64,000 nucleotides of DNA from an uncultured Acidobacteriaceae bacterium (lineage in GTDB: Bacteria; Acidobacteriota; Terriglobia; Terriglobales; Acidobacteriaceae): positions 49,017 to 113,016 of the forward strand of contig CAVXVM010000106.1 in NCBI GenBank assembly GCA_963765025.1. Direction: 5' to 3'. The notes beneath the pieces are model-generated. The model searched no databases. It had not been told where the DNA came from and saw only the letters and a program-made list of their open reading frames with translations. Below are positions 8,797 to 47,292 of this stretch, piece by piece. The stretch's first letter is position 1; every line of letters begins with the position of its first letter. The position numbers were made by a program, and so were the translations under genes.

Positions 8797-8874
8797 TCAG
8801 TAGTCAGTAGTCAGTGGTCAGTGGTCAGTGGTCAGTGGTCAGTAGTCAGTGGACAGTAGTCAGTGGACAGTGGA
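8770..8874. repeat. Heptanucleotide tandem repeat (CAGTRGW)n, 15 units
   Basis: cagtggt cagtggt cagtgga cagtagt cagtagt cagtagt cagtggt x4 cagtagt cagtgga cagtagt cagtgga cagtgga, in constant 7-nt phase. Confidence 0.95.
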
Positions 8875-9306
8875 ATTTTGTGGATGGATTGGCCCAGCGA
8901 CTTGTACTGTCGCTGGGCTTTTTTTGCGTTTGTGGGGGTGGTTGCGTGGCGAGCAGCGGGCTTGCTTTCGATCTTCAGACCAGATGTTCAAGTTCCCTTC
9001 AGCGGTCATCTCCGCTAACTCCATCGATAGCAACAGTTAAGAAACTCCAATGCGTCTGGGGATCGGGTCGGGGCGTTGGTTAAGTTGAGTGGTTTGCATC
9101 ACATCCGGGTCACGGATTGGGGGGATAGAATTCCAGCGATGGAGGGGTTTTTGCGGGCGCAGGAGACGGCTGAGGGGCTGGAAGCCTTCGTGAATTCGGC
9201 CGGGGCTGGCCGCTGGACTAGACAACAACCCTGAGAGCGCATAGGGACGCGGGCTTGGGCAATGGATGGATTGATTCGGTTCAAACGGACGAACCGTGGA
9301 GCGGGA

Positions 9307-31326: not shown

Positions 31327-32341
31327 ATGGCAACGATGAAGGACGTCGCACAACGAGCGGGTGTGTCAGAGTCCACGGTCTCGCACGTCATCAATAGCAC
31401 CCGGCCAGTGTCGGAAGACAAGAAGGCGCGCATTTTACTTGCGATGCGAGAGCTTGGCTTTTCAGCAAACGCCCACGCTAGAGGGCTTGCACGTGGGCGA
31501 AGCAATTTCCTGGGCATGCTCGTTTCCGATATCGAAAACCCCTTCTTCCCTGGGGTGATCAAGGCCTTTGAGGATATTGCCAGGCAGCACGGGTTCGATG
31601 TTCTGCTTTTCAGCACGAACTACGACTCGGAAGTTGCTGAGAGTGCCTGCCGTAAGTTGGTGGAAAATCAGGCGCCTGCGGTTGCGATCATGACTTCGCA
31701 GCTGGATCCTGCACTACTGGAATACCTTGCAAAAAACAGCGTTGATTCTGTCATGCTGGACGGAATCAAGGTCGCTCCCCACCGCAGCAGTCTTCATCTG
31801 CGCTACGAAAAGGGCGCGGTGGAAGGTGTGCAATGCCTTTTCAACCTCGGACACCGCGACATGGCGATGATCGCCGGCCCCCAAAACCGCCGTTCCCACA
31901 TTGCGTATCGAACAGCGGTCGAGTCTGCCGCTATGGCTCTTAACTGCCGCCTGCGGGTTATCGAGGGCCACAATACCCCAGAATCAGGCTCAGATGCGAT
32001 CGCACGGTCTGTTGACAGCTGCGGATCTTCCAACCGCAATTCTCTGTAGCAATGATTTGACCGCGATTGGCGCAATTCAGGCATTAAACCACTCTGGTTT
32101 ACGGGTTCCTGAGGATATTTCGGTAGTCGGCGCGGACGATATCCCATTGGCCCAGTTGATGACCCCCACACTGACGTCAGTGCATATTCCGCGCCAGGAC
32201 CTCGGCCGGATGGCACTTTCACCATTATTGAAAAGATGCTGAACGGAGAGCTTTCCTGGCGGAACGGAGTCTTTCCTCGATACCCACCTCATCGTCCGGG
32301 GCTCTACAGGGTCAGGCAGGAGAGGCGAGATTTCAAACTGA
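31327..32341 (+). pseudogene. LacI-family transcriptional regulator, disrupted (frameshift near 32006-32010 plus in-frame TGA at 32240)
   Basis: The HTH MATMKDVAQRAGVSESTVSHVINS and the sugar-binding domain are in frame 1 up to ...ESGSDAIAR. LLTAADLPTAILCSNDLTAIGAIQALNHSGLRVPEDISVVGADD continues in frame 2. After TGA 32240, the same frame still encodes the family C-terminus ...FLDTHLIVRGSTG. Confidence 0.8.
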
Positions 32342-32505
32342 AATTTCTCGTCGATAAAGCAAGCGCTTGCGCAAATACTGCGCATTGTGTATTCTTTGGT
32401 TGCTCGCAGCCGGAACCACCCGAAATAAGGGCACGACGGCGGTTCAAGATCGCAAACGGACCCGGCTGGAACGGGTTCAGGTCAGACCGGGAATGAGGAC
32501 GAACG

Positions 32506-33559
32506 ATGGGAACAACTTATCCTGTGATTGAAGGGGCTTATGTTCGCGACTTATTGGAACAGCCCGATTCATTAAGGCGCACTTTGGCCACGCCGCTGCC
32601 CGCCGAGCTGACTGATGTAGGCAAAAGGCTCAGGGCTCCTCAGCCGCCCTCCGTAATCCTCACCGGGATGGGCTCTTCCTACCATGCCCTTCATCCTTTG
32701 GCGATCCGCCTGGCGGAATCGGGCATTTGCCCTTTAATGCTCGAGACCTCAGAGCTGAACTACTACTGGAGCGGACTCCTCGGCCCGAATACTGTTGTTC
32801 TTACAGTTTCGCAATCTGGACGAAGCGCAGAGATTTTGCGCTTGCTCGATATCGATGCGGGTCGATCGACACTGATCGCAGTTACCAACGACCTGGACTC
32901 TCCGCTCGCGCACACTGCAAACGGAGTCGTCCAGGATTGACGCTGGAGTGGAGTCATCCGTTTCGTGCAAAACCTATGTCAGTAGCTTGCTTGCATTGAG
33001 CCGCGTGGGCGAAGTTTTGTGCCCACAGGATCGAGCTACTTTCCGTCGACAAGCCGAATGAAGCAATCGCTGATTTGGTGGACCAATATCTCGCAAACTG
33101 GCGTGAGCACGTCGAGGAGGCTCTGATTTGCCTGCAGGGCGTGCGCCATCTGGTGCTAGCCGGGCGTGGGCCTTCTCTTGCAACAACGGGAACTGGCGGA
33201 TTGATTATCAAGGAGGCTGCTCGCTTCCCAGCCGAAGGCATGAGTGCGGCGGCTTTCCGCCACGGACCCGTTGAGATGCTAAGCGATGAACTCTTTCTTC
33301 TTGTTTTTCAGGGTGGTGAGCGTTCTGCGCACTTAAACAGCAGGTTGGCTGCTGAAGTTCTTGACCTCGAGCGGAAATTGCCAATTGGTCTCGGAAGAAA
33401 GCGATCTGGCGCTCTTTCGGACGGTAGCAACATACTGAGTCGTTAAGGCCGATTCTTGAGATTTTGCCGGTTCAAATGATCACACTTGCGCTGGCTGCAC
33501 GACAGGGTCGCGAAGCCGGCGCCTTCTCTCACGCCTCCAAGATCACCTCGACGGAATAG
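32506..33559 (+). pseudogene. Double-SIS-domain sugar isomerase/deglycase-like protein (GlmS C-terminal / AgaS / FrlB type), at least 3 frameshifts
   Basis: Four consecutive pieces in frames 1, 2, 0, 2. Piece 1: ...ILTGMGSSYHA...VLTVSQSGRSAEI...IAVTNDLDSPLAHTANGVVQ. Piece 2: IDAGVESSVSCKTYVSSLLALS. Piece 3: ...HLVLAGRGPSLATTGTGGLIIKEAARFPAEGMSAAAFRHGPVEML. Piece 4: PILEILPVQMITLALAARQGREAGAFSHASKITSTE*. Confidence 0.75.
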
Positions 33560-33640: not shown

Positions 33641-34612
33641 TCATTGGTCTTCTGCCTTACGCCGCAAAGCGGTTCTCGGGCCATGACCATAGGCTTGCAA
33701 AAAAACCTTGTAAAATTGCGCGTAACTCCCGAAGCCGGCTGCATAAACGGCCTCAGTAATCGTTTTTTGGTCTTCCTGCTGGTACTGCTCAAAAAAACGG
33801 GAGAGTCGCAGCGAATTGCGATACCTGCTCATAGGAACACCAAGCTGCCGACTAAACATCCTGCTCAAATAGGCCTTGCTCGCCCCGCAGGCTTTCGCCA
33901 AATCACTCATGTTCAGCGCCGTGTCACCCTCGCTCAAGAGCTTAAGGGCACGACGCACCACCGGATGCAGATCGACCGCATCGCGTGTCGCCTTGCCTGT
34001 CACCTGACAACGCCAGCAAAGCAGCAGGAGATAGTGTAATCCGGCATTCAGGCTGTCAGGATCTCGATGCTCGAAGATGAAATCTGAGGACTGCCCGAAG
34101 CCAGCCTCCTTATTGAGCAAATCCGGGTCCAGCGAGCCCTGCATAAGCGAGTCCATGATCCGTCGAGTCAGATCAAAGGCCTCGGGTTTCAGCACCGTGC
34201 TCAGAACGCCGACCTTCTCGTTCTTAACGTGCTTCAGCCCTTCGTAAGCAGAGGAGCGGCACGATCGTCGAATCAGCGACGGCTTGAAAACGGCAACATA
34301 GAATTGCGCATCATCGGACCGATCCACCAATTGGTGTTCCTGTTGAGGAAAAAGCCAAAGCAGGGTTCTCGGCGAAAAGGTGAAGCGCGTGCCATCGACA
34401 ACGTAGGTGATGGTTCCCTGAAGAATAAGGTTTACCTCGAGCTCAATATGGTGATGGCTCTGGAGCATTTGGACATTCCGAGCGGATTCCGCCAGAAACA
34501 AAAGGCCATCGTAAGCCTTGCCAAGCTTGAGGTTTGCGAGCATTTGGACAATATACGATAACTTTTCATCACCTGTCGAGATGACATTTATCGAACCCGA
34601 CCATACGATCAT
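33641..34612 (-). CDS. AraC-family transcriptional regulator
   Basis: C-terminal HTH_18 region (LAKACGASKAYLSRMFSRQLGVPMSRYRNSLRLSRF) with an N-terminal cupin-like domain. The start is possibly Met24 (34543). Confidence 0.85.
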   Translation of the reverse strand: MIVWSGSINVISTGDEKLSYIVQMLANLKLGKAYDGLLFLAESARNVQMLQSHHHIELEVNLILQGTITYVVDGTRFTFSPRTLLWLFPQQEHQLVDRSDDAQFYVAVFKPSLIRRSCRSSAYEGLKHVKNEKVGVLSTVLKPEAFDLTRRIMDSLMQGSLDPDLLNKEAGFGQSSDFIFEHRDPDSLNAGLHYLLLLCWRCQVTGKATRDAVDLHPVVRRALKLLSEGDTALNMSDLAKACGASKAYLSRMFSRQLGVPMSRYRNSLRLSRFFEQYQQEDQKTITEAVYAAGFGSYAQFYKVFLQAYGHGPRTALRRKAEDQ

Positions 34613-34632: not shown

Positions 34633-35700
34633 ATGCTGCTTCCCCTGACTTCTCTAATTTTCGGCACTCTGCCCGATGGAAAGGCAGTGGAGGCCTGGAC
34701 ACTCTGCGGATCGGGAGGCCTGCGGCTCGAAATCATCACATATGGAGCTGCCGTCACGCGGCTTCTCGTCCCAGACCGCGATGGACGCCTCGCAGATGTA
34801 GTCCTTGGCTTCAACAACCTCGCCCCCTACGCGACGGGTCGGACTTATTCTGGCGCCGTGATCGGCAGGGTAGCGGGAAGGATGACCGGCGCCCGTTTCA
34901 GCCTGGATGGAATCGCATACCAACTCACACCAAATGACGGCCTGAACCATCTTCACGGCGGCAGCGAAGGTTTCGACAAGAAGGTCTGGACCGCTTTCCC
35001 CATGCAGGATGCTTCTGGAGCGCCATCTCTGCGACTCACATATCGCAGCACAGACGGCGAGGAGGGCTATCCAGGAAACGTGGATGTTGCGGTGATCTAT
35101 ACAGTCACCGGCGAGAATGTCGTACGCGTTGAAACAGAAGCTGTCTCAGACCGGCCGACTCCATTCAACCTGACGCTACACCCGTATTTCAACCTAGCCG
35201 GGGAAGCAGCCGGCCCCATCAGCGATCATCTTCTCCAGATCCATTCCGATGAGTTCGTAGCCACAGACGAACAGATGACGTTGCTTGGACGCCTGAAACC
35301 GGTGAATGGCCAGCACAATGACTTCAGAACACTTCGCGGCCTTGGCGATGCCGTCCCGCTGCTTTTTCGAAACCACGGAGACCTTTATCGGATTCGCAGA
35401 ACGGGCGATTGTCTTGCTCAAGCGAAGCCCGTGCCGGCTGCTCGATTGGTTCATCCGGCTAGTGGACGCGTTCTTGAGTTGTCCACGACTGAGTCTTATG
35501 TGCAGCTTTACACGGGAGTCGGCCTCGACGGATTGCTAACCGGGAAATCCGGCACGCGGTATGCGCGCCACGCCGGTGTTTGCCTGGAGTGCGAAGGCTA
35601 CCCCGATGGAGCGAACAGTCCGAGTATGGGCGACAACATTCTGCGACCTGGAAAGGCCCGAAGTGAAATCACGACTTACTCCTTTTCAACGCTGCCATGA
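34633..35700 (+). CDS. galM: Aldose 1-epimerase (galactose mutarotase)
   Basis: FGTLPDGKAVEAWTL start, NHLHGG, EEGYPGN, and a family-typical length (355 aa). Confidence 0.9.
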   Translation: MLLPLTSLIFGTLPDGKAVEAWTLCGSGGLRLEIITYGAAVTRLLVPDRDGRLADVVLGFNNLAPYATGRTYSGAVIGRVAGRMTGARFSLDGIAYQLTPNDGLNHLHGGSEGFDKKVWTAFPMQDASGAPSLRLTYRSTDGEEGYPGNVDVAVIYTVTGENVVRVETEAVSDRPTPFNLTLHPYFNLAGEAAGPISDHLLQIHSDEFVATDEQMTLLGRLKPVNGQHNDFRTLRGLGDAVPLLFRNHGDLYRIRRTGDCLAQAKPVPAARLVHPASGRVLELSTTESYVQLYTGVGLDGLLTGKSGTRYARHAGVCLECEGYPDGANSPSMGDNILRPGKARSEITTYSFSTLP

Positions 35701-35762: not shown

Positions 35763-38045
35763 ATGGGAAACAGTGCGACCGTGCTCGAGCAATCGCCTCT
35801 CCGGCAGGACTATAGCCTGACCGGCGTCAACTCGGAGCTCGCCATCCAGAAAGGTCTTGCCGAAGCAGACTGGTATCAGTGCGCTGTGCCACGCGAAACG
35901 ATGCGCCAGTTGCTGGTTCGGCGCGATGGACCCGCAATCCGCGACACCGTGATCTGGTTTGCACTCATCATCGGCGCTGGACTTGCAACCTGGAAGCTGT
36001 GGGGCTCCTGGTGGGCGCTGCTTCCCTATGCGATTTACTGCGTGCTTTATGCCTCCACCTCCGATTCGCGCTGGCACGAGAGCAGCCACGGAACTGCATT
36101 CAAGACGGACTGGATGAATAATGCTCTTTACGAGATCGCTTCGTTCATGGTCATGCGCGAGTCGACCGTCTGGCGGTGGAGTCATAACCGCCATCACAGC
36201 GACACCATCATCGTTGGCCGAGACCCTGAAATCGCCGTGCCACGGCCACCGGATTTGAAGGCAATCGTTCTGACGTTCCTCGGTGTGCGCGCTTATCCAA
36301 ATTACTTCCCGGCCGTCTTGAGGCACTGCCTGGGCCGAATGTCCGCAGCCGAAAAGACCTTCATCCCCGAAACAGAATTCCCCAAGGTCTATCTGAGAGC
36401 GCGTATCTATTTCCTCATCTATGCCTCGGCGATCGGCATTGCAATTTACGAACGCAGCATCTTCCCGGTCATGCTCGTGGGGCTTGCTAGTCTGTTTGGC
36501 TACTGGCTCATGCCCATCTACGGGATGACGCAACATGCAGGCCTGGCGGAGAACGTGCTCGACCACCGGCTCAACTGCCGAACGGTGTACATGAATCCGA
36601 TCAACCGTTTTTTCTACTGGAATATGAACTATCACGTCGAGCACCACATGTTCCCGCTGGTTCCCTATCATGCGTTGCCGCGACTGCATGCTGTGGTCAA
36701 GGAGGACTGCCCCACGCCCTACGCCAGTATCCCCGCCGCGTGGCGCGAGATTATTCCTGCCCTGCTCAGGCAAACGAAAGATCCGGCCTACCATGTCAAG
36801 CGACAGTTGCCACCGCCCAGGAGGCACATGCGCGAGGCATTCATCGTGTCGAAGGCCCAGACGGATGCCGAGGGCTGGATCGACATTTGCGCGGCAACAA
36901 GCCTTGGGCAGGGCGATGCACTGCGCTTCGACCATGGCAAGAAGTCCTACGCGCTTTATCGCGATGAAGCCGGCGGCTTATTCGCGACCGACGGATTCTG
37001 CACGCACGGTAATACGCATCTCGCAGACGGCCTTGTGAAAGGAAAGATGATCGAATGCCCCAAACACAACGGGCGCTTCAATTTGATTGACGGCTCACCG
37101 GCGCGCGCGCCTGTCTGCCGCGGCCTTGCGACCTATCCTGTCGAGGAGTGGAACGGACGAATTCATATCAACATCGTTCGCGCTGGAGGCGTGGGGGCAC
37201 GCGCACAAGAGGCATTCAAGTTTCGCGTGGTCAGCAACAGAAGCGTTGCCACGTTTATCAAGGAGCTTGTTCTTGAACCTGAAGACGGCACGAGGGCCAT
37301 TCCTTTCACGCCGGGAGATTATCTGCAATTCGACATTCCCACGTATGACTCGATTCGCTTTCGGGATTTCGATATCCCTGAGCCCTTTGCAACTGTGTGG
37401 AGGAATCAGCACATCTTTGATCTTGTGGCACGTAATCCGGAATCGGGTCGTCGCAACAACTACTCGCTGGCGAGTAACCCGCAAACCGAGCGCCAACTGC
37501 GCTTCAATGTGCGGATTGCCACGCCGCCTCCCGGACAGGACTGCGCGCCCGGCGCCGGTTCCAGCTACGTTTTTTCGCTCAAGCCGGGGGACATCGTTTC
37601 AGCCATCGGCCCGTTCGGTGATTTCCATATCAAGCCCACGCAGCATGAGATGGTTTATATCGGCGGAGGCGCCGGCATGGCTCCGCTGCGCGCGCATCTT
37701 GCCCACTTGCTTGAAAGCCAGGGGACCTCGCGCAAGATCAGCTACTGGTACGGAGCGCGCTCGCGACAGGAGATCTTTTACGAGGAGTATTTTCACCAAT
37801 TGTCCGCTGCTCACGGAAATTTTTCGTTTCACCTTGCGCTTTCTTCGCCGCTGGCTGAGGATGGTTGGACCGGACCGACCGGCCTCATTCACGAGGTCGT
37901 CCTGGAGCACTATTTACGCACGCACCCGGCTCCCGAGGCGGTCGAATACTACCTGTGCGGGCCACCCATGATGATCAAGTCGTGCACCAGGCTGCTCGCC
38001 GGGCTTGGCGTGCGCGAGCAACAGATCGCTTACGACGAATTCTAG
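35763..38045 (+). CDS. Three-domain fusion: membrane fatty-acid-desaturase-family di-iron oxygenase + Rieske [2Fe-2S] + FNR-type FAD/NAD(P)H reductase
   Basis: His boxes HESSHG, HNRHH and HVEHHMFPLVPYHALP with TM segments (about aa 1-340). Rieske CTHGNTH...CPKHNGRF (about aa 365-470). FNR motifs RNNYSLAS (RxYS), GGGAGMAPL, YYLCGPPMM (about aa 480-760). The RBS AAAGGGGA precedes ATG 35763. Confidence 0.85.
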   Translation: MGNSATVLEQSPLRQDYSLTGVNSELAIQKGLAEADWYQCAVPRETMRQLLVRRDGPAIRDTVIWFALIIGAGLATWKLWGSWWALLPYAIYCVLYASTSDSRWHESSHGTAFKTDWMNNALYEIASFMVMRESTVWRWSHNRHHSDTIIVGRDPEIAVPRPPDLKAIVLTFLGVRAYPNYFPAVLRHCLGRMSAAEKTFIPETEFPKVYLRARIYFLIYASAIGIAIYERSIFPVMLVGLASLFGYWLMPIYGMTQHAGLAENVLDHRLNCRTVYMNPINRFFYWNMNYHVEHHMFPLVPYHALPRLHAVVKEDCPTPYASIPAAWREIIPALLRQTKDPAYHVKRQLPPPRRHMREAFIVSKAQTDAEGWIDICAATSLGQGDALRFDHGKKSYALYRDEAGGLFATDGFCTHGNTHLADGLVKGKMIECPKHNGRFNLIDGSPARAPVCRGLATYPVEEWNGRIHINIVRAGGVGARAQEAFKFRVVSNRSVATFIKELVLEPEDGTRAIPFTPGDYLQFDIPTYDSIRFRDFDIPEPFATVWRNQHIFDLVARNPESGRRNNYSLASNPQTERQLRFNVRIATPPPGQDCAPGAGSSYVFSLKPGDIVSAIGPFGDFHIKPTQHEMVYIGGGAGMAPLRAHLAHLLESQGTSRKISYWYGARSRQEIFYEEYFHQLSAAHGNFSFHLALSSPLAEDGWTGPTGLIHEVVLEHYLRTHPAPEAVEYYLCGPPMMIKSCTRLLAGLGVREQQIAYDEF

Positions 38046-38055
38046 AAAGGCCGGA

Positions 38056-38982
38056 ATGAGATCCCCTACAGGTTTCCTAAATGACGGTTCAGCCGATGCC
38101 CCAAAGCTCCTTGTCTATTTGAACCTGGATAACCTCGTCGATTTGCGCGAAGATAGCTCATGGCCACATCTTGACGGCTTGGCCCGGTACCAGCGCCTGG
38201 TTGGGGATGGTTTTGAAGGCGTTCAACTCACGACGAATGACCCTCCGATCGTCCATGCACCCGTGCCACACTGCGGCCTGGACAGGATCAACTCACCGGC
38301 AGAGGCTGATGAAGTCGCAGCCGGACACGCGGAGCGTGGCGATCTCTGCATCACAGTTCACGCTGGATGGGGACTCGAAGACGATGACGCAACATTTCGG
38401 CTCGCGGAAGCGATACTTACCGCCTCCAGTAAACACAGATTACCCATCTTCATCGAGACGCATCGCGCCACGATCACCCAGGATTTGTGGCGCACTGTGC
38501 AGATCACGAAGAAGTTCCCGGAGGTTCGCTTCAACGGAGACTTCAGTCACTACTATTGCGGGCAGGAACTCGTGTATGGCGACTGGAAGAGCAAGCTTGC
38601 ATTCATGGAACCCATCTTCGATCGGGTTGGATTCTTGCATGGCAGAATCGCCAGCCCCGGCTGCATGCAAGTGTCCATCGATTCAGGCCTGACTTCCCGG
38701 CCACTGCAAGCCCACGGCGATATCAATTATCTTGACCATTTCAAAGAGTTGTGGACGCGCGCCATGCTGGGATTTCTCCGCAGTGCTCATCGAGGAGATG
38801 TCCTCATCTTCGCACCCGAACTGCTCTCGGGAAGGCATTATTACGCTCGCATGTTTCCCAATGCCTCTGGTCAACTTGCGGAGGAAAGCGACCGCTACGC
38901 TCAAGCTCTGCTGTACAAGGACCTGGCCCGCGCCTGCTTTGCTGAGGCCCTGGAGCAAGCATCAAGGAGTGTGGCTAAGTGA
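38056..38982 (+). CDS. Xylose-isomerase-like TIM-barrel protein (sugar phosphate isomerase/epimerase family), tentative
   Basis: The pattern ITVHAGWG / IFIETHRATI / FNGDFSHYY / GFLHGRIA / IFAPEL resembles the AP_endonuc_2 fold. ATG 38056 lies 8 nt after the upstream stop. Confidence 0.5.
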   Translation: MRSPTGFLNDGSADAPKLLVYLNLDNLVDLREDSSWPHLDGLARYQRLVGDGFEGVQLTTNDPPIVHAPVPHCGLDRINSPAEADEVAAGHAERGDLCITVHAGWGLEDDDATFRLAEAILTASSKHRLPIFIETHRATITQDLWRTVQITKKFPEVRFNGDFSHYYCGQELVYGDWKSKLAFMEPIFDRVGFLHGRIASPGCMQVSIDSGLTSRPLQAHGDINYLDHFKELWTRAMLGFLRSAHRGDVLIFAPELLSGRHYYARMFPNASGQLAEESDRYAQALLYKDLARACFAEALEQASRSVAK

Positions 38983-40343
38983 AACCGCCGATCAATTTGC
39001 GCTATGTCATTTTCTTAGGCAGTACCGCTGCACTGGGAGGCCTGCTCTTCGGATTCGACATCGCAATCATCACCGGTGCTGGTCCATTTATCACCCGTGA
39101 ATTCGCATTGAGCGATATCGGCCTCGGCTGGGCTTTCAGTTCATTGCTGTTTGGATGCGTACTGGGTTGTTTCATCGCAGGAAGGCTCACAGACAGGTAT
39201 GGACGCAAGAAGCTGCTCCTGGTTGTCGCGGCGCTGTTTGCCCTGACATCCATTGCCACCGCCCTGGCGCCTGGCTTTACAGCGTTTGTTACTGCGCGAT
39301 TTCTGGGAGGCCTGGCGGTCGGCGGCGTCTCTCTCCTATCTCCCATGTATGTGTCGGAGGTTTCTCCTCCGACCATCCGCGGCCGCATGGGCACTCTGTA
39401 CCAGATGTCGATCATCACCGGCATCATCGTGTCCTACGGCATCAACTACCTGCTGCGAAATACCGGGCCGAATAATTGGCGATGGATGTTTCTAACCGGA
39501 GTTGTGCCATCGGCGGTGTTTTTGATCTTCATCGCGCTCGCTCCCGAAACGCCGCGCTTTCTCGCACTGACTGGAAAACTGCAAGAGGCGTTTGCCTTGC
39601 TTGAACGCATCGGCGGAGCCGAGAGTGCGCGCACGCAAATATCCGAGATCGCCGCCACCATTCACACGGAACCGCAGACTTGGTACGCGCTCATGCGGCC
39701 AGGTGTTCGCCGCGCACTATCGGTCAGTGCGGGTCTTGCAATCCTTATTCACATCTCGGGAATCAACACCATCGTCGACTATGCCCCAGCGATTTTTCAG
39801 TCGGCCGGATGGAAAGTGGATGGCGCTTTAGCGTCAACATTCATCGTTGGCCTGACTGAGTTTCTCTTTACAATCGTCTCTTTCTGGGTTATCGATAGGT
39901 ATGGACGCAAGCCGCTCTATATTGTTGGCTCGCTCGGCATGGCGTTCTCATTACTTCTGCTTACCGCGACAGTGATGGCCGGCCGTTTCCACGGAACCCT
40001 GGTTCTGGTCCTGATTTTGACCTACCTGGCGTTCTTCGCGTCCTGCATAGGGCCGGTATTTTGGACGCTCGTTCCGGAGATATTCCCGAACGACGTGCGC
40101 GGGATGGCAATGACGGTTCCGGTGCTGATCCAGTGGGTTGCCAATGCGATCGTCGTGCTTCTCTTTCCTTATGCGTTCCATGTGATTGGCAAAACGTTTA
40201 CCTTCAGCTTTCTCGCGGCGATGGCGCTCGGCCAGGGGATCTTTGCATGGTCTTTCGTACCAGAAACGAAGAACAAGCGCCTGGAGGAGATCGAAGAATA
40301 CTGGACCAATCCCAGAAAAGCCCCATCCAGTATTCGGCTCTGA
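38979..40343 (+). CDS. MFS sugar porter family transporter
   Basis: 12 TM segments. GRLTDRYGRKKLL, PETPRFL, IDRYGRKPL and PETKNKRLEEIE signatures. The GTG start overlaps the upstream stop. Confidence 0.9.
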   Translation: MKPPINLRYVIFLGSTAALGGLLFGFDIAIITGAGPFITREFALSDIGLGWAFSSLLFGCVLGCFIAGRLTDRYGRKKLLLVVAALFALTSIATALAPGFTAFVTARFLGGLAVGGVSLLSPMYVSEVSPPTIRGRMGTLYQMSIITGIIVSYGINYLLRNTGPNNWRWMFLTGVVPSAVFLIFIALAPETPRFLALTGKLQEAFALLERIGGAESARTQISEIAATIHTEPQTWYALMRPGVRRALSVSAGLAILIHISGINTIVDYAPAIFQSAGWKVDGALASTFIVGLTEFLFTIVSFWVIDRYGRKPLYIVGSLGMAFSLLLLTATVMAGRFHGTLVLVLILTYLAFFASCIGPVFWTLVPEIFPNDVRGMAMTVPVLIQWVANAIVVLLFPYAFHVIGKTFTFSFLAAMALGQGIFAWSFVPETKNKRLEEIEEYWTNPRKAPSSIRL

Positions 40344-40410: not shown

Positions 40411-41697
40411 TCACCTTGCTCCATTAAATTCATGCACGGCATCGAGCATGGCGACAATATTCTCAACCGGCGTTGCTGCCTGCACGTTGTGAACGGTATT
40501 GAACACGAATCCTCCATTCATTGAGAAAACCTCGCACCTTTGCATCACCTGTTCTCTCACTTCAGCGGGTGTTCCGAATGGGAGAACTCTTTGCGTGTCG
40601 ACTCCCCCTCCCCAGAAGACGAGGCGATCTCCGAACTCGGATTTCAATTGCCTGGGGTCCATTCCTGTCGCGGAACACTGCACCGGATTGAGAATGTCGA
40701 ACCCAGCCTCGACGAGAGATGGAAGAAACTTGAAGATTGCACCGCAGGAATGTTTGAAGGTCTTCCATTGCGTGTGCTTGTGAACCCAATCATTGACTTG
40801 TTTGTAGTAGGGAAAGTACAAATCATTGAAGGTTTTTACAGAGCAGAAGGCGGACGTCTGAGTTCCGAAATCCGTGCCGCAGATGAAGGCCGCTTGTATG
40901 CTGTTGCCGATTGCCGCGTGAATTTTTTCAAGATTCAGGATGGCTGTCTCGCATTGGCGTTCAAATACCTTATGGATATAATCCTGCCTGCTCCTGGTGG
41001 AGACGTACCACTCAGCGACGTCGCGAATGCCCCTGGGGTGCTTGAGCGAAGGGCCCGGCACCAATGCGATATCGCCGAATGCAGTGCCGCCAAAGGTGGC
41101 GATCACTCCACGGCCCGTCAGGGCGGCCGCATGCGTGGCTCGAACAATATGGTCGAGGTCGGCCTGCGAGATCAGGCCATACTCCTCCAGATTATCCTCG
41201 GGATTTAGTCTTTCTTCGTCGATTGGGTCCTGGCGGACGATGCAGTCGAAGAAATGGCCGCCACTTGGCATGCGCCCGCTCGGAGCAACCGTAGTGTCGC
41301 CTTCCGGGTAGATCAGAGTGCCGCCGTCAGAGTCCATCGAGGTGTTGAAGTCCCTTGCGACCTGCACGTCGAGTCCGTTCAATCTCCACGGTTTCCATTC
41401 ATCCGCAGGAAATCCAAACATGGTATTGCGCGCGAAGACGCCGACCACATCAAGCCGCATCGCCTCGATCAGATCTTCATCCAAGAGCCCCAGCATCTGG
41501 AATGGCTCGTGGACCCGCACGGGGCGCTTTTCAAGTCCGTAATAGTCACGCAGCGCAGCCACGCAGCTCACATGCATTCCAGTCGTTGGCGTTCCTCCGA
41601 AGTCAATTGGAATTCGGTCGGGCTGCGTGTGGTTGAGAGTTGCGATGATCCGCTCAAGGCTTCCTGTCTTCTCGATCGTGGCAGTCATTGTATTCAC
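40411..41697 (-). CDS. URO-D-family methyltransferase (MtaA/MT2-like)
   Basis: 428 aa. N-terminal PDRIPIDFGG and a HSCG...VQC arrangement resembling the MtaA Zn site (HxC...C). It is the last gene of the corrinoid operon. Confidence 0.75.
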   Translation of the reverse strand: MNTMTATIEKTGSLERIIATLNHTQPDRIPIDFGGTPTTGMHVSCVAALRDYYGLEKRPVRVHEPFQMLGLLDEDLIEAMRLDVVGVFARNTMFGFPADEWKPWRLNGLDVQVARDFNTSMDSDGGTLIYPEGDTTVAPSGRMPSGGHFFDCIVRQDPIDEERLNPEDNLEEYGLISQADLDHIVRATHAAALTGRGVIATFGGTAFGDIALVPGPSLKHPRGIRDVAEWYVSTRSRQDYIHKVFERQCETAILNLEKIHAAIGNSIQAAFICGTDFGTQTSAFCSVKTFNDLYFPYYKQVNDWVHKHTQWKTFKHSCGAIFKFLPSLVEAGFDILNPVQCSATGMDPRQLKSEFGDRLVFWGGGVDTQRVLPFGTPAEVREQVMQRCEVFSMNGGFVFNTVHNVQAATPVENIVAMLDAVHEFNGAR

Positions 41698-41730
41698 TCC
41701 TTGCTCTTATCTTTTTCCTGACGCGTATCG

Positions 41731-43278
41731 TTACCGCTCGCGTGTGTCTGCAATTTTCGAGTTGTTGTATGTCTCCGCCTCTTGGCTATGGTCATCCGCC
41801 GCGGGAAACCTCATGCAGTTCGCGAACTCGTCCTGGAAATCAATGTCGGTGGCGAGGCTCACGTGCTCGATCGGAGGCAGCGCGCTTTCCCTGGAGGCGA
41901 CCAGGAGCATTTTTGCCCCTCGGAGCGCAGTGTTGCCGGCCGCGTAAACCCGTTCGCGGTGCGCCTCGAGCAAGCCGATACGGAGTGCGCTTTCAATTTG
42001 CACATAGTTGCCAAAGGCGCCCGCGAGATGGATGCTCTTGAGATCGCCGGCAGTCGCGCCGAGGCGTTTGAGAAGCAGCTTGAATCCCGAGGCGATCGCG
42101 CCCTTTGCCAGTTGCAACTCGCGAACGTCGGCCTGACAAAGGACGACGGGGTGGGCAATGGGAAAGAATTTTGTGCCGTTGGCGATCCGTCCCGAAGGAA
42201 GAATAGCCCCTGTGCGAAGGCCGACAGCGATGGCGTCAACAAGTCCGCTGCCGCAGATGCCGCGTGGCTCGACGTCGCCAACGACATCTGCATGGATCTC
42301 TTCGCCGCAAAGCGACACGTGAGAAATGGCTCCAGTGGCCGCGCGCGTGCCCATCCGAATGCAGCCAGCTTCAAAGGCGGGCCCCGCTGCGGCAGAGGCG
42401 CAAACGATGCCGAAGCGGTTGCCGATAGCGATTTCGCCGTTGGTTCCAAGGTCGACCAAGGCCATGAGATGGTCACTTTGTGCAATGCCGGTAGCGAGGA
42501 TTCCGGCAAGGATGTCAGAGCCAACAAACCCTCCCAGACAGGGTGCGAAGCGAATTGTGCAGGTTGCCGGCAGATGCCAGCCTAGATCTTGCGGGCGGAA
42601 TGTCTGACCTACGAGATTCGGTGAGGCGAAGGGGGCATGCGAGAGCGGTTCAACGTCGCAGCCGGAGAACAGATGATGCATTACGGTGTTGCCAACGAGG
42701 ATGACCTCGGCAACTTCCGGCTCGCGGCCGCGGGCCAGGCGCGTGATGAGCTGGCCGAGGAGTACGCGAAGCATGGTCGTCAGATCATTGCCCTGGAGCG
42801 CGGCGCGAATTCTGCTCATGACGTCGGAGCCGAATGAGGCCTGGGGATTGAGCTCAGTTTCTACGGCTAGAACTTTGCCGGTAGCGAGGTCGAGGATTTG
42901 CGCGGCAATGGTCGTGGTGCCGAGATCGATTGCGATGCCGAGGCCGTGTTTTCCGGAACCGATGAGGCAAGCATCGTCGGTGAGGACATCCATGCGCCAC
43001 TGGCAGCACTCAAGGACCAGAGGCATGAGGGCGCGCGCCTGACAGGCGAGACGCCAGCCAAGGGCAAGCTGCTCGGGCAGGAAGGCCGTGCGGTCTGGGT
43101 CGGTGACAGGAAGGGAGCCGGAAAGGACGCGAACTGCGCACCCTCCACAGGTTCCGGTGCCTCCACAGGGAAATTCGATGCCTTGGCCTGAGAGTGCCTT
43201 GATGAGCTGCGTGCCGACAGGCGTTTCGATTTCCAACGCGAGCGGCTCCAGGCGAATGCGGACTTGATCCCTGCTCAT
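41731..43278 (-). CDS. Reductive activator of corrinoid proteins (RACo-type: 2Fe-2S ferredoxin + ASKHA ATPase / DUF4445)
   Basis: FPCGGTGTCGGCAV...LACQ ferredoxin motif, then GIAIDLGTTTIAAQ ASKHA phosphate-1 motif. ATG 43278 overlaps the upstream stop (ATGA). The ORF is open to 43359. Confidence 0.8.
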   Translation of the reverse strand: MSRDQVRIRLEPLALEIETPVGTQLIKALSGQGIEFPCGGTGTCGGCAVRVLSGSLPVTDPDRTAFLPEQLALGWRLACQARALMPLVLECCQWRMDVLTDDACLIGSGKHGLGIAIDLGTTTIAAQILDLATGKVLAVETELNPQASFGSDVMSRIRAALQGNDLTTMLRVLLGQLITRLARGREPEVAEVILVGNTVMHHLFSGCDVEPLSHAPFASPNLVGQTFRPQDLGWHLPATCTIRFAPCLGGFVGSDILAGILATGIAQSDHLMALVDLGTNGEIAIGNRFGIVCASAAAGPAFEAGCIRMGTRAATGAISHVSLCGEEIHADVVGDVEPRGICGSGLVDAIAVGLRTGAILPSGRIANGTKFFPIAHPVVLCQADVRELQLAKGAIASGFKLLLKRLGATAGDLKSIHLAGAFGNYVQIESALRIGLLEAHRERVYAAGNTALRGAKMLLVASRESALPPIEHVSLATDIDFQDEFANCMRFPAADDHSQEAETYNNSKIADTRER

Positions 43279-44021
43279 ACTGTGTCCACGATGCTGTCGC
43301 CGAGTGTTGCCCGGATGGTTTCGCCGGGCGCCACAACCAGGAAATGGGCCGCGTCCCATTCGTGGTCGACCAGGCGCTGGATCAGCTTAAGAGTGCCCTT
43401 GATTTCGTCGAAAGCCCAACCTTCCTTGCCGGCCTCGGCGCGTGCTTTGATGCGGCTGGGCTCGTCAGACGGAACGGCTGTGGAGATATAGGTGAGGCCT
43501 GAATAGTGACTGCGAAAGGCGTTGAATTGCTCGAATAAATAGGCGCCGTTTTCCTCGCCGTACTGGGCGGTCAACTCAGCGAGAGTGCGGCGCTCTCCAA
43601 GCGAAGTTTTTTGCGAGGTGAATGCAGGTTCGAGCATCATCCCTGGAGTCTGAAACTCAATCCATCCGGGCGAGCGATAGTAGACGCCAGGGTGATTTTG
43701 AAAGTAATCCTCATAGGTGGGATGGCCGCCCATGAGCAAGCCGATGCAATCGTGCACGCGGGGAAGAACCAGTGGCGTTTTTCCTGCGCGCAACCCTTCA
43801 GTGCCGCGGCCGCAGAGCGCGTAGCCGAGAAGGATCGCGTCGAAGCCGGCATTGTCGGCTGCGTCGATACGTTCTTGCAGGTGTGGGCGCATGCCTACGC
43901 CAAGATCGTGCAGGCCCATTGGCACGATCTCGATTTCGATCGAATGGGGTGAGCGGGAGACAACGCGCTCCATCTCGCGCGTGAAGACCTGACATGTGAT
44001 GGCTTTAAAGCGCATGTTCAT
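43275..44021 (-). CDS. DUF1638-domain protein
   Basis: 248 aa. The family is recalled from its usual position next to corrinoid methyltransferase genes (AITCQVFTREME..., LLGYALCGRG, VHDCI). Confidence 0.65.
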   Translation of the reverse strand: MNMRFKAITCQVFTREMERVVSRSPHSIEIEIVPMGLHDLGVGMRPHLQERIDAADNAGFDAILLGYALCGRGTEGLRAGKTPLVLPRVHDCIGLLMGGHPTYEDYFQNHPGVYYRSPGWIEFQTPGMMLEPAFTSQKTSLGERRTLAELTAQYGEENGAYLFEQFNAFRSHYSGLTYISTAVPSDEPSRIKARAEAGKEGWAFDEIKGTLKLIQRLVDHEWDAAHFLVVAPGETIRATLGDSIVDTV

Positions 44022-44076
44022 TCAACGTCTCCCCATCGGCGGTGCCGTCGGGGCATGGAAGACTGGCTCGCCACGC

Positions 44077-45468
44077 CTACAGCCCATAACTCGCTTTGTC
44101 GTACAGGCTGCCATATTGTGCTTCGAGATCGACCAAGAGCGCGTCCTCTTCGGCCGGAAATCTCTCCAAGGCTTCGTCAATGCGCGCAAGCCATTGCAAC
44201 TCTTTTCGGGAGAGATGGAGTTTTTGCTCCGCAACGCCATCCTTCAGAACTTGAACTGCGGCGCGGCCGGCGGCAATTACGCGATGGTACGGCGTGTCCG
44301 TCGTGACGATTGCGGCGGCGATACGAATTGTAGCGTCGGGTGAGAGTACGGCAGCCTGGGGGCTCAACCACTCGTCCGATGCCACCATCCAGTTGCGCAA
44401 TTGCAGGGCTCCGCCCGGAGCGCGGGCGGCCGTGTTCATCAACCGGCAATCGTAGGCAAGGAGTTCGGTATAGGCTTCCGGCGCGTTGCCGGAGAGCAGG
44501 CGCACATTCTGCACCGACTCGTTACTCCACAGGTCGCACATCGCGGCGGCGATGTTGCCAACGGGGCTGAAGTGCGCGCAACTGGCCGACTTGCCCTCCA
44601 TCGAAATTGGGCGGCCTGTAATTGCTTTGAGGATAGGTCCCTCGTAGGCGCAATCTTTCGATGGACCAACGGCGCCCTGCTCGAAGGCAGAGAGGCTGCG
44701 TACCGCGCTCATCGCGCGAACCACCGCGGCGAGCACCTCGGGAAGCATTTTCTGGTGGGCGAGTTGCATGGCGGTATTTGCGAATCCGCATGCGGAGTCG
44801 CCACCACTCACGACGCCGGGATGCGCCGCGCAGATCTCGCCAATCTGCGCCCACAGCCAGGACATATCTCTTGGGGCCAGCACCCCGAGGGCAAAGACGA
44901 TGCCTGAGAAATCCCCGTACATCAGCGCCTGGTCGTGGACCTCCTTACCGCCGATCGATTCGATGGAGAGGATGTCGGCTCCTGCCTCGGCGCATAGTTC
45001 CAACGATCGCTTGAGCCGCTGCCACGGTTGGCCCGTGCGCATCAAGGGCGGCTTTTGCTGATCGCGAATGTCGGTGGGTGTGACGCGCAGAGCGCAGGAT
45101 AGATGATATTTCTCATGCGCGGTTACGAGTTGCCTTTTGAGAACCGCGGTGATCTCTGCCCCCCACTCTGGATGGTCTGTCATGGGCGGCAGAAGTTCAA
45201 ATTCAAGGACGATGCCGGGAACGCCAAGCGAAACAGCGCGGCGCAGAATTTGCGATGCCATCTCGTCGTAGTGAGCCACAACGTCCGGCCAGGTCCCGGA
45301 CTCGATATTCATGGCCGGCAGGGTAAAGTTGACCTCAGGGAATACTTGGCCAGCACCAATGGTCAAGCCAAGGCCACAAGCAAGCGGAAGTGGACTTGCA
45401 CCGTACAGAAGCTCATCGGGACGTTGAACGGCGAGCGTTGAGTATTTGAGGAGAGTCTCGGTGATCAT
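44077..45468 (-). CDS. mtaB: Methanol:corrinoid methyltransferase MtaB homologue
   Basis: 463 aa. Colinear blocks match my recollection of Methanosarcina MtaB: EVNFTLP, VLEFELL, HPEWGAEI, CALRVTPTDIR, EAGADILSIESIGGKEV, GGDSACGFANTAM, RSLSAFEQGAVGPSKDCAYEGPILKAITGRPISMEGKSASCAHFS, LWSNESV, LAYDCRLMNTA, end ASYGL. Confidence 0.85.
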   Translation of the reverse strand: MITETLLKYSTLAVQRPDELLYGASPLPLACGLGLTIGAGQVFPEVNFTLPAMNIESGTWPDVVAHYDEMASQILRRAVSLGVPGIVLEFELLPPMTDHPEWGAEITAVLKRQLVTAHEKYHLSCALRVTPTDIRDQQKPPLMRTGQPWQRLKRSLELCAEAGADILSIESIGGKEVHDQALMYGDFSGIVFALGVLAPRDMSWLWAQIGEICAAHPGVVSGGDSACGFANTAMQLAHQKMLPEVLAAVVRAMSAVRSLSAFEQGAVGPSKDCAYEGPILKAITGRPISMEGKSASCAHFSPVGNIAAAMCDLWSNESVQNVRLLSGNAPEAYTELLAYDCRLMNTAARAPGGALQLRNWMVASDEWLSPQAAVLSPDATIRIAAAIVTTDTPYHRVIAAGRAAVQVLKDGVAEQKLHLSRKELQWLARIDEALERFPAEEDALLVDLEAQYGSLYDKASYGL

Positions 45469-45471
45469 TAC

Positions 45472-46110
45472 TTATGCCACTGCCAGGAGACTCTTGACCA
45501 GGCCGACCGCGCCATTGGCATTCTCACTGTAGCCGTCAGCGCCAATCTCTTTGGCGTACTGACTGGTCACGGGCGCACCGCCAAGAAGGACCTTTACCTG
45601 GGTGCGTACGCCAGCCTTGCTTAGCGCGTCAATGGTTGTCTTCATCGCGGGCATGGTTACGGTAAGCAGCGCCGACATGCACACGATATGGGGTTGACGC
45701 TCCTTGACGGCTGCGACAAACGCCTCTGGCGAAACATCCGCGCCAAGATCGATCACTTCGAAGCCGCTGCCCTCGAGCATGGAGGCCACAATGTTCTTGC
45801 CGATATCGTGAAGGTCGCCCTTGACTGTTCCGATGATGATGCGCACAGCCATCTTCTGCCCGGAGGCAACGAGCAGCGGCTTGATCAGTTCCATGGCGCT
45901 CTTCATGGCGCGACCAGCAAGCAAAAGCTCGGGGACAAAGTACTCCTCGGCTTCGAAGAGCTTTCCGACTTCGTCCATGGCGGGCACCATGGAGTCGGCA
46001 ATTAGCTGCATTGGTTCCGCGCCCTCTGCCAGAGCCATTTCAGTGGCAGCGTGTGCCCTTTTCGCATCGCCGTTGAGAATCGCTTCGAAGAGTTCTTTAG
46101 ACTGTGCCAT
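45472..46110 (-). CDS. mtaC: Corrinoid (cobalamin-binding) protein, MtaC-like
   Basis: N-terminal B12-binding_2 helical cap plus Rossmann domain with GDLHDIGKN (DxHxxG), SALLT and LLGGAP. Confidence 0.9.
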   Translation of the reverse strand: MAQSKELFEAILNGDAKRAHAATEMALAEGAEPMQLIADSMVPAMDEVGKLFEAEEYFVPELLLAGRAMKSAMELIKPLLVASGQKMAVRIIIGTVKGDLHDIGKNIVASMLEGSGFEVIDLGADVSPEAFVAAVKERQPHIVCMSALLTVTMPAMKTTIDALSKAGVRTQVKVLLGGAPVTSQYAKEIGADGYSENANGAVGLVKSLLAVA

Positions 46111-46708
46111 ATTCTTCTTCCTCTAAACTGAAGTCGCCAGGATCAATCGGTCCGCGCATACGCGCGGCCGGCATGAATCTCTGGATGTAGTGACCGAGGG
46201 TGAAAATCATCACGCTGCCTATTGCCTCTGAGGTTATGCTATTGCGAAAAAACGGGAGTGCCGCAGAGTAGCAGGCTCCGAGCCCACCTGGAGTCTTGGG
46301 ATACATGCCCCATTCAGCCCACACAGTGAGGTTGCTCACCACAAAGAATGACAGCGAAGCAAACAAGGAAGATCCAAGTACCCGGCGGGATGAAATGGAA
46401 CCACCCAAGACCGTGCCACCGAGGAACAAGGCAACCAGGTACCAGATCCATGTAACGGCATGACCTGGAGTGAGTGCGAAGCCGTACTGGTGCGTGGTTA
46501 AAAAGATGTCGACGGCCACAAGAGCGAGAAGCGGGATGCCGAATTCCCGCCTGGGCCTACACGCTCCAAAAAAGAGAAGGCATGAGAAAACAGGTATCAG
46601 GTTATTGGGGCAGATGAGACTCAAACGAAGCACTGCGGCCCCTGCGATGAGAATGTACGGAAGGACCACAAGTTGTTTTCCACTGAGACGCTTGATCGTG
46701 AATATCAT
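46097..46708 (-). CDS. DUF6580-like membrane protein (putative corrinoid/vitamin uptake component)
   Basis: About 6 TM segments. NNLIPVFSCLLFFGA and SNLTVWAEWGMYPKTPGGLGACYSAALPFFRNS resemble DUF6580 as I recall it. GGAAGG lies 5 nt before ATG 46708. Overlaps mtaC by 14 nt. Confidence 0.55.
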   Translation of the reverse strand: MIFTIKRLSGKQLVVLPYILIAGAAVLRLSLICPNNLIPVFSCLLFFGACRPRREFGIPLLALVAVDIFLTTHQYGFALTPGHAVTWIWYLVALFLGGTVLGGSISSRRVLGSSLFASLSFFVVSNLTVWAEWGMYPKTPGGLGACYSAALPFFRNSITSEAIGSVMIFTLGHYIQRFMPAARMRGPIDPGDFSLEEEEYGTV

Positions 46709-47292
46709 GAATTCCTTCCGTGCCACTCTCGGGCGGCCTTTTGGCCGCCGCTGAATGCTGCCTTGCATTCTCATCGCTTAGCATTGCGCCAGACCCTCGA
46801 CGGGCCGCTCGCTGGTGCGACAGCGTGAGGCAACCCAGCCGAGAAGATGCTCGGTTAAGTGAGATACTAACCCCAAACTACAGATCGCTAACTTGGATGT
46901 CTTCTCCATCCGTGTCTAATAGTGGTTAATTCTTGCGCGATCCTCGAACGAGCCCAGCGTCGCGACAACTGCCAGGCAGGTCCGGAACAGATGGATTGCC
47001 AAAGCCCCTTTAAACCGCGTCAATTGTCTCTTCGATGGGTCGCCCCGCCCCTTGATTGAAATTTTCGCGTCCCGCATTGGATTAGTTCGAGACAGCTACC
47101 GCCGCAAGCGGATCCCAGCCTCCGAGCGCTGAACCCTAGCTCCTTCCGGGCGCGCCTCGGGAGTAGAAGGACTTCATCGTTACGCTCCAGATGTCCTTCT
47201 ACCCTGCATGCTCAAAAACCTTCCCCCCATGCACCCGGTTGGTTTTACTCCGCCCTCGACCAAGGATGTCTTCACGCTTTTCGTATACGAAA

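Follow-up and report, generated by a model that had tools for sequence, protein, structure and literature searches.

A single-chain MocD-type di-iron oxygenase with Rieske and NqrF-like modules as a candidate O-methyl-sugar demethylase in Acidobacteriota and Verrucomicrobiota

The window analyzed here is a stretch of 64,000 nucleotides from an uncultured Acidobacteriaceae bacterium (contig CAVXVM010000106.1 of assembly GCA_963765025.1), and our subject within it is a gene whose product joins a membrane di-iron oxygenase of the MocD type, a Rieske ferredoxin, and an NqrF-type flavin reductase in one chain (hereafter the fusion; Table 1), which we put forward as a candidate demethylase of O-methyl sugars. 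The fusion is the second of four genes on one strand, preceded by the gene for an aldose 1-epimerase (mutarotase, galM) and followed by those for a TIM-barrel protein and a sugar porter. Because only 62 nucleotides (nt) lie between galM and the fusion and 10 nt between the fusion and the TIM-barrel gene, and because the TIM-barrel and porter genes overlap by 4 nt, we predict from the spacing that the four form one tight, translationally coupled operon. A gene for an AraC-family regulator diverges from this operon on one side, and a set of corrinoid methyltransferase genes converges on it from the other.

Table 1. Fusion gene, its domains and conserved motifs, and the neighboring genes, in coordinates of the window.
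Feature	Position	Strand	Basis
AraC-family regulator, divergent from operon	33641..34612	-	Pfam HTH_18, AraC_binding
Aldose 1-epimerase (mutarotase, galM), first operon gene	34633..35700	+	Pfam Aldose_epim, E 1.8e-71
Fusion: membrane di-iron oxygenase, Rieske ferredoxin, NqrF-type reductase	35763..38045	+	Pfam, NCBIfam, PDB, homologues
N-terminal MocD-type membrane di-iron domain, residues 1-365	35763..36857	+	Pfam, hydropathy, MocD identity, tree
His box 1, HESSH (H105, H109)	36075..36089	+	conservation in 35 relatives
His box 2, HNRHH (H141, H144, H145)	36183..36197	+	conservation in 35 relatives
H258, ninth conserved His, just past predicted transmembrane helix 4 (TQHAG)	36534..36536	+	100% conserved
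His box 3, HVEHH (H291, H294, H295)	36633..36647	+	conservation in 35 relatives
Rieske [2Fe-2S] ferredoxin domain, residues 372-470; ligands C413, H415, C432, H435 at 36999-37067	36876..37172	+	Pfam, NCBIfam, PDB
NqrF-type FAD/NADH reductase domain, residues 485-760, without the NqrF transmembrane helix and plant-type 2Fe-2S domain	37215..38042	+	NCBIfam, PDB
Divergent xylose-isomerase-like TIM barrel (sugar isomerase/epimerase type), 309 residues	38056..38982	+	cluster Pfam, AlphaFold2, Foldseek
Major facilitator superfamily (MFS) sugar porter	38979..40343	+	Pfam Sugar_tr, E 1.9e-107
Corrinoid methyltransferase gene set, convergent: URO-D/MtaA-like, RACo activase, DUF1638, MtaB-like, corrinoid protein	40411..46110	-	Pfam

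The fusion occupies one stop-free frame that translates to 760 residues (the stop codon is included in the coordinates), and its ATG has a Shine-Dalgarno-like GGGGA box 8 nt to its 5′ side; a TTG two codons 5′ of this ATG is the formal start of the open reading frame (ORF). The first-pass annotation had described a single 760-residue polypeptide of three parts, a di-iron oxygenase, a Rieske ferredoxin, and an FNR-type reductase, that would supply itself with electrons. The uninterrupted frame bears out the single polypeptide, the domains and motifs support the self-sufficient reading, and a Pfam search matched all the expected families, namely FA_desaturase, Rieske, NAD_binding_1, and, weakly, FAD_binding_6. 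More than 5,800 homologues are found in the databases, and the best 120 are all about 760 residues long with an identical domain set.

The N-terminal domain matches FA_desaturase (PF00487) over residues 82-323 with an E value of 1.7e-34 and 120.2 bits against a cut-off of 29.7. The three His boxes named at first reading are indeed present, beginning at residues 105, 141, and 291, and together with H258 they make up nine His residues (H105, H109, H141, H144, H145, H258, H291, H294, and H295) that are 97-100% conserved among 35 diverse family members with 32-70% identity. The polar residues D267, R269, R273, D154, and E156 are conserved in the same set. Hydropathy analysis, with peaks at about residues 56-81 and 209-255, suggests two hydrophobic hairpins, at about residues 56-99 and 209-255, resembling those of membrane desaturases, and an AlphaFold2 (AF2) model built with 30 close homologues (69-82% identical) places low-confidence helices at 57-80, 83-99, 203-230, and 234-258. 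A search of PDB sequences with this domain returned no match.

The Rieske domain was recognized by Pfam over residues 372-459 (E 3e-16, 59 bits), and it has the expected CxH...CxxH ligand pattern as C413-T-H415 followed after 16 residues by C432-P-K-H435. PDB Rieske ferredoxins match it at about 1e-19. Its best NCBIfam Rieske model is MocE_fam_FeS (TIGR02377), which scores 110 bits over its full length relative to a curated cut-off of 136. In the C-terminal domain, Pfam assigns a weak FAD_binding_6 match to residues 548-622 and NAD_binding_1 to residues 633-741 (E 6e-16). The proposed NqrF/FNR module is confirmed by GGGAGMAP at 634 and CGPP at 732, but the motif first given as RxYS reads R-N-N-Y-S (residues 564-568), which in the alignment is a one-residue insertion relative to the RAYS of NqrF.

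Kinship of the first two domains points to an unfused precedent that the first-pass annotation missed: the MocD and MocE (and MocF) proteins of catabolism of the rhizopine 3-O-methyl-scyllo-inosamine, along with widespread two-domain MocD-Rieske fusions. The N-terminal domain is 54-58% identical to proteins named "fatty acid desaturase family" on 278 rhizobial and Burkholderiaceae plasmids. On Rhizobium johnstonii pRL11 and R. etli pA, these lie in operons in which a LacI-type regulator gene accompanies genes for the desaturase (one of them annotated mocD), a MocE-family ferredoxin, and a flavin adenine dinucleotide (FAD) reductase; a TIM-barrel gene adjoins them, and a gene for a PanB-like hydroxymethyltransferase comes after. 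On plasmid p_1 of Sinorhizobium meliloti RCAM1115, the locus at 181992-200903 (L089) holds a full moc set comprising iolE-like and Gfo/Idh/MocA genes, a sugar-binding protein gene, and a MocR-type regulator gene, and the mocD there is followed by mocE, mocF, a PanB-like gene, and purU. The MocD homologue of this strain is 51.6% identical to our N-terminal domain, although it is frameshifted (split) in that record, and the MocE of the S. meliloti moc locus is 49% identical to our Rieske domain. The PanB-like gene and purU after mocDEF suggest tetrahydrofolate-linked handling of a released one-carbon (C1) unit. The similarity stops at the reductase, since the MocF-like rhizobial genes encode a 408-residue "FAD-dependent oxidoreductase" and the fusion has an NqrF/FNR-type domain instead.

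An exhaustive search with the oxygenase domain gave 358 representatives of 50%-identity clusters at E<=1e-30, among which a single one stands for all three-domain proteins. Next in relatedness come two-domain oxygenase-Rieske fusions of 455-500 residues and unfused proteins of about 360 residues; a protein search with residues 1-478 had returned only the close three-domain clade, and the two-domain relatives came from the representatives and from genome searches. In a maximum-likelihood tree of the desaturase domain, the three-domain proteins form a clade with one two-domain and one 519-residue protein (support 98/99), and this clade adjoins the rhizobial MocD clade in a shared group of 22 rows with support of only 83/86. 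The window gene and a paralogue in its own genome are sisters in this tree. That second copy (G000:C105:3634-5913, L087) is 77% identical, lies on another contig, and diverges from a gene for a sugar porter that is 74% identical to the one in the window; a HAD hydrolase gene and a NRAMP transporter gene adjoin it, and two tandem integrase genes and a GH29 fucosidase gene are nearby.

Relatives of the fusion are encoded at 481 loci in species-representative genomes, and the best 80 are colinear with 71-99% identity. Altogether, Acidobacteriaceae and, with greater frequency, Verrucomicrobiota hold hundreds of colinear, full-length homologues with 56-99% identity. When whole genomes were searched, 3 of 400 from other Acidobacteriota (about 1%) and 22 of 300 from other Verrucomicrobiota (about 7%) had full-length copies lacking internal stops, some of those in Verrucomicrobiota on closed chromosomes. 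The judgment that the architecture is unusual is thus correct for enzymes that have been studied but not for nature. Cultivated Oleiharenicola lentus has two copies. The gene is present in one of four genomes of the same genus, and it is commoner and more diverse in Verrucomicrobiota, where copies are 60-72% identical to the query. Because the distribution is this patchy and copies in different phyla are still 70-73% identical, the gene has probably spread horizontally, with Verrucomicrobiota as the probable source.

The neighbors of the fusion were clustered de novo for 77 related loci, and 20 further Verrucomicrobiota loci (60-72% identity) were examined. The commonest immediate neighbors in the 77 loci are those seen in the window: the TIM-barrel gene lies directly downstream of the fusion in 35, and galM lies directly upstream on the same strand in 33. 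A divergent AraC gene is present in 24 of the 77 and in about half of the 20 Verrucomicrobiota loci, and a sugar porter gene is found in 15 of the 77. Among the Verrucomicrobiota loci, eight have the TIM barrel, seven have galM, and three have corrinoid or URO-D genes. Other neighbors include GH36 and GH27 alpha-galactosidases, a PL11 rhamnogalacturonan lyase, GH29, and GH31, and a few relatives carry Gfo/Idh/MocA together with an IolO-like TIM barrel.

Genes for handling methyl groups or formaldehyde form a second, less frequent layer of this context. URO-D/MtaA-like genes occur in 9 of the 77 loci and RACo and MtaB genes in four to six, and one Verrucomicrobiota locus has the entire corrinoid set 3′ of the fusion on a single strand. 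Counting the window and a relative that is only 36% identical, URO-D/MtaA-like genes or full corrinoid sets adjoin or enter the fusion operon in about 13% of loci, and the methyltransferase genes take at least six different arrangements around the fusion. In two loci (L035 and L051), the operon opens with a URO-D-like gene, separated from galM by 2-7 bp. A two-domain relative that is 36% identical (genome G622; L111, G622:C28:1-13000) has a URO-D-family gene 11 bp upstream, and this pair is accompanied by a divergent AraC regulator with a PocR sensor and then by a XylR-like regulator, a GH29 fucosidase, a sulfatase, and GH43, so that the locus looks like one for the utilization of a sulfated or methylated fucan-type glycan. 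In another locus (L034), a gene for glutathione-independent formaldehyde dehydrogenase (TIGR02819, 705 bits vs a cut-off of 637) begins 16 bp after the fusion. The same dehydrogenase gene is found 80 bp after the fusion in L042 and adjacent to it in four further related loci, and all these cases together represent two independent contexts. An 855-residue Tat-signal protein is encoded before the fusion in L034, and a PDB sequence search with it returned no match.

Taking together the domains, their conserved ligands, the relationship to MocD and MocE, and these gene contexts, we infer the following course of reaction. NADH (reduced nicotinamide adenine dinucleotide) would reduce the FAD of the C-terminal NqrF-like domain, which would pass electrons one at a time to the Rieske [2Fe-2S] cluster, and the Rieske cluster would in turn reduce the nine-His di-iron center, expected at the cytoplasmic face of a four-helix membrane domain; each of these transfers is modeled on domain homology. 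The di-iron center would activate O2 and hydroxylate the ether-bound methyl of an O-methylated sugar or sugar-like cyclitol, and the hemiacetal so formed would collapse to formaldehyde and the free sugar (aldose). The sugar porter would import the substrate, the AraC regulator would induce the gene set, and the mutarotase and the TIM-barrel isomerase/epimerase would pass the aldose into central metabolism. We place the attack at the methyl group because of the neighboring formaldehyde dehydrogenase, PanB-like, PurU, and methyltransferase genes.

The two parts of this proposal deserve different degrees of confidence. That the fusion is a self-sufficient monooxygenase acting on a polar, sugar-like substrate we consider quite probable from its domains and neighbors. 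We lean, with less assurance, towards the narrower claim that it demethylates O-methyl sugars at the expense of NADH and O2, with release of formaldehyde. The first reading had left the substrate blank; the neighbors point to a methylated sugar and away from a lipid or hydrocarbon. Published observations on related genes fit with such a role: a root exudate in which pinitol, an inositol methyl ether, is the chief component induces mocDEF homologues (PMC5789663), the mocDEF genes of Pseudomonas syringae adjoin a second xylose isomerase gene (PMC5132102), and oxidative demethylation of a sugar, with formaldehyde as a product, has been established in the case of a P450 system (PMC6292453, PMC9400963).

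The corrinoid genes allow this proposal to be extended. The set in the window lies outside the fusion transcript, and its functional link to the fusion is by recurrent co-location. Probably, these adjacent B12-dependent methyltransferases process methyl groups from the substrate pool of the fusion, or from a related one, in an O2-independent manner. A stronger version, which we offer tentatively and with the balance against it, is a two-route module for one methylated plant or microbial sugar, in which the di-iron oxygenase would use O2 and give formaldehyde while the URO-D-like/corrinoid set would take the same methyl group without O2. If this were true, peat Acidobacteria and Verrucomicrobia could use methylated glycans across the oxic-anoxic boundary, and URO-D-family proteins would gain a role in the cleavage of sugar methyl ethers. 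The link could also reflect a shared regulon for plant-derived C1 compounds, such as methanol from pectin, and not a shared substrate.

That possibility is one of several points that weigh against the demethylase proposal. Adjacency to formaldehyde dehydrogenase is seen in 6 of 97 loci and amounts to two independent events only, and in the bacterium's own genome, which is 97.9% complete, no gene passes the curated cut-offs for a formaldehyde dehydrogenase. In about half of the related loci, the fusion is flanked by genes of the housekeeping type only, with no sugar genes among them, and the second copy in the genome has just the sugar porter gene beside it. The Rieske domain falls under the MocE family cut-off (110 vs 136 bits). 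The AF2 model of the oxygenase domain failed (predicted local distance difference test score, pLDDT, of 52.6) and hence gives no view of the pocket or of the geometry between cofactors. A literature search found no assay of any family member, MocD included. The demethylation step of MocDEF is reportedly a genetic model, that of Bahar et al. 1998, and so this closest precedent is based on genetics and not on enzymology.

The alternative that survives best keeps the same monooxygenase and changes its chemistry, such that an unactivated C-H bond of a sugar or cyclitol (for instance, the C6 methyl of fucose or rhamnose) would be hydroxylated or a ring carbon desaturated or oxidized. The sugar context fits this equally well, alpha-L-fucosidase genes are near the own-genome paralogue and in L110 and L111, AlkB-type relatives hydroxylate terminal methyl groups (PMC8918992), and the literature search found no assay of MocD. 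We nevertheless judge it unlikely, since it leaves unexplained why formaldehyde dehydrogenase is co-operonic, why PanB-like and PurU genes come after mocDEF, and why the pairing with genes of methyltransferase families recurs.

A self-sufficient lipid enzyme, that is, a desaturase or hydroxylase of fatty-acyl chains, sphingolipids, hopanoids, or hydrocarbons, would agree with the FA_desaturase match, with a weak score of 36 bits for DesB, a Delta(10) desaturase model, with the lack of sugar genes near roughly half of the loci, and with the existence of fused AlkB systems. It appears improbable to us all the same. Among curated models, none for a lipid desaturase or AlkB comes near its cut-off, with lipid desaturase models at 36 bits or less. 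The nearest relatives are of the MocD type and reside in sugar or inositol loci, and no lipid-metabolism genes recur among the neighbors. The patchy accessory distribution (one of four same-genus genomes and 3 of 400 genomes of the phylum) is also unlike that of a housekeeping enzyme of membrane lipids. This reading was rejected on model scores, kinship, neighbors, and distribution.

Many sources give homologues of the fusion another name, that of NqrF, the NADH-oxidizing subunit of the Na+-translocating NADH:quinone reductase. The resemblance is real for the reductase domain: the C-terminal 276 residues match the FAD domain of NqrF in PDB 7qty with an E value of 4e-84 and are colinear with it over 274 residues, the GGxGxxP and CGP motifs are shared, and the NCBIfam nqrF equivalog model (TIGR01941) scores 329 bits, over its cut-off of 295. 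However, that model is matched at positions 130-403 of 405 only, there is no Pfam Fer2 match, and 480 residues of desaturase plus Rieske replace the N-terminal helix and the plant-type 2Fe-2S ferredoxin domain. The neighborhood has no nqr genes, a search for nqrB across the 97.9% complete genome found none, and four Verrucomicrobiota and Planctomycetota carriers that were examined have no separate close NqrF. On the partial model match, the neighbors, and the lack of nqrB we rejected the identity with NqrF, to which we give next to no chance. The NqrF names at NCBI and JGI arise because the reductase domain, although it covers only two thirds of TIGR01941, is by itself enough to pass the cut-off of this model. 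As a consequence, thousands of database entries are mislabeled "NqrF," with a curated equivalog model spreading the name via this domain. Unlike that of NqrF, the flavin domain of the fusion would feed a Rieske centre. We know of no place for an NqrF-type flavin domain that directly feeds a Rieske center among the classical classes of Rieske oxygenase electron chains.

A joining of adjacent mocD, mocE, and reductase genes by sequencing or gene-calling error, for which one might cite the broken LacI and SIS genes near the fusion in this assembly and the existence of unfused and two-domain relatives, can be set aside because the same frame is conserved in independent genomes: 756-764 codons are open in a 98.6% identical metagenome-assembled genome (MAG), in the second copy of the own genome, and, without internal stops, in about 100 further genomes of three phyla that include closed chromosomes. 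This conservation excludes the assembly chimera that had been raised as a concern at the outset. The gene is real, and it is common in peat and soil bacteria. The opposite error does occur; in a nanopore-based assembly (L110, ena:ERZ26871208 contig_70985_np1212, 8001-10281), the fusion gene was called as two overlapping ORFs of 459 and 317 residues, an artefactual "fission" that might easily pass for a two-domain form occurring in nature.

As to the breaks themselves, the region at 31327-33446 contains a truncated LacI-family regulator gene (240 residues) and a double-SIS sugar isomerase gene split into at least two ORFs. The SIS gene is whole (349 residues, L001:202-1251) in the 98.6% identical MAG contig L001, which confines the breaks to this assembly or strain, where either decay or indel errors would account for them. 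Two segments of the window of about 186 and 160 bp, at 38243-38428 in the TIM-barrel gene and 39059-39219 in the sugar-porter gene, are missing from the otherwise 98.6-100% identical L001, probably owing to a collapsed or patched assembly of L001.

Comparison with better-known systems helps to define what is shared with the demethylase that we propose and what is not. MocDEF is the closest. Its di-iron component has the same nine His residues, is 52-58% identical to the N-terminal domain of the fusion, and occupies a neighboring clade of the tree; it receives its electrons directly from a Rieske ferredoxin (49% identical); and its gene belongs to sugar or cyclitol catabolism, adjoined by a TIM-barrel gene and followed by C1-handling genes. 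In contrast, MocDEF is encoded by three separate genes in different phyla, and MocF is an oxidoreductase of about 408 residues of the glutathione-reductase type with FAD, unrelated to the NqrF/FNR module of the fusion. Nor does the window contain the mocA, mocB, mocC, and mocR locus, the place of which is taken by galM, the TIM barrel, the MFS porter, and AraC. By this comparison of sequences the fusion would work like MocDEF, yet its reductase is of another family and the moc context is missing, which keeps it from full membership of that system. The two-domain MocD-Rieske fusions (about 455-500 residues) share its first two domains in the same order with 32-62% identity, and one of them follows a URO-D-family gene among glycan-degrading genes. 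They have no reductase, however, and are scattered through the tree, whereas the three-domain proteins form one shallow clade.

Fused AlkB proteins (AlkB-rubredoxin, with a structure from Fontimonas thermophila, and ferredoxin-ferredoxin reductase-AlkB) likewise join a class III membrane di-iron oxygenase to its electron donors, and three-domain AlkB is self-sufficient and has also been mis-annotated (PMC8918992, PMC10113152). There the donors are N-terminal, but in the fusion they are C-terminal; the carrier is a plant-type ferredoxin or a rubredoxin and the substrate an alkane; and no AlkB model matches the fusion. The P450, ferredoxin, and ferredoxin reductase of marine Bacteroidota that act on 6-O-methyl-D-galactose of porphyran carry out the reaction that we propose, an O2-dependent hydroxylation of a methyl ether, to give the free sugar and formaldehyde, and they are linked to formaldehyde detoxification genes (PMC6292453, PMC9400963, PMC10033563). 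That system is soluble and uses a haem-thiolate center and separate partners, whereas the fusion is a membrane di-iron protein in one chain. The P450 reaction has also been proven biochemically and that of the fusion is only predicted.

The first-pass annotation knew of no characterized member of this architecture, and we can agree: our literature search found no paper that characterizes the three-domain form or assays MocD, the curated family models contain no characterized member either, and no function was found assigned to the architecture. Methyl ethers block the glycolytic use of sugars, among them 2-O-methyl-xylose, 2-O-methyl-fucose, 3-O-methyl-galactose, 4-O-methyl-glucuronate, and pinitol. 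To our knowledge, the marine P450 system is the only proven enzymatic route for the demethylation of sugars. If the proposed chemistry is correct, the fusion would represent a second, unrelated class of carbohydrate O-demethylases in the abundant Verrucomicrobiota and Acidobacteriota of peat and soil, and it would be an additional source of formaldehyde in the C1 cycling of peatlands. A natural one-chain system from NADH to a di-iron center would also make an attractive chassis for biocatalysis and a model of electron delivery to membrane di-iron enzymes.

The remaining genes of the operon are consistent with a sugar substrate of some kind. For the mutarotase, the best NCBIfam model is galactose-1-epimerase (243 bits, under the cut-off), and for the porter, a sugar porter subfamily model is above its cut-off while the XylE model, at 332 bits, is below. 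The 309-residue TIM-barrel protein itself has no Pfam or NCBIfam match. However, 15 of the 24 members of its cluster match PF01261, its AF2 model reaches a pLDDT of 92, and the top Foldseek matches are UlaE, the Art22 isomerase, and a tagatose-3-epimerase-like protein. An E/H/D/H/H/E set is invariant in it, as is an E/D/H/E-type metal set. No significant similarity was found by BLASTP between this protein and the rhizobial TIM barrel beside the mocDEF-like genes, and we therefore do not claim that the two are orthologous.

Within the convergent corrinoid set, the MtaB-like protein matches PDB 2i2x with an E value of 4e-97, and the URO-D-like neighbor has no match in a PDB sequence search. An Rfam scan of the window, including 46709-47292, found no cobalamin riboswitch at the gathering threshold and recorded only a tRNA at 18966-19038. 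The genome holds two copies of the set of MtaB-like, corrinoid protein, DUF1638, and RACo genes, 71-89% identical to each other (window 40411-46774 and G000:C89:488-4816), and a third contig (G000:C60:27738-30030) carries a tandem pair of further URO-D/MtaA-like genes. Corrinoid methyltransferase-type genes of Acidobacteriota are expressed in Stordalen Mire (PMC10805028), and the nearest relative of the window is a Stordalen bog MAG. Elsewhere in the window, on the minus strand, a 760-residue Tat-signal protein without a Pfam match (47293-49575) and an 892-residue protein with only a weak GH38 C-terminal match (24819-27497) are each encoded among TonB-receptor and glycoside-hydrolase genes.

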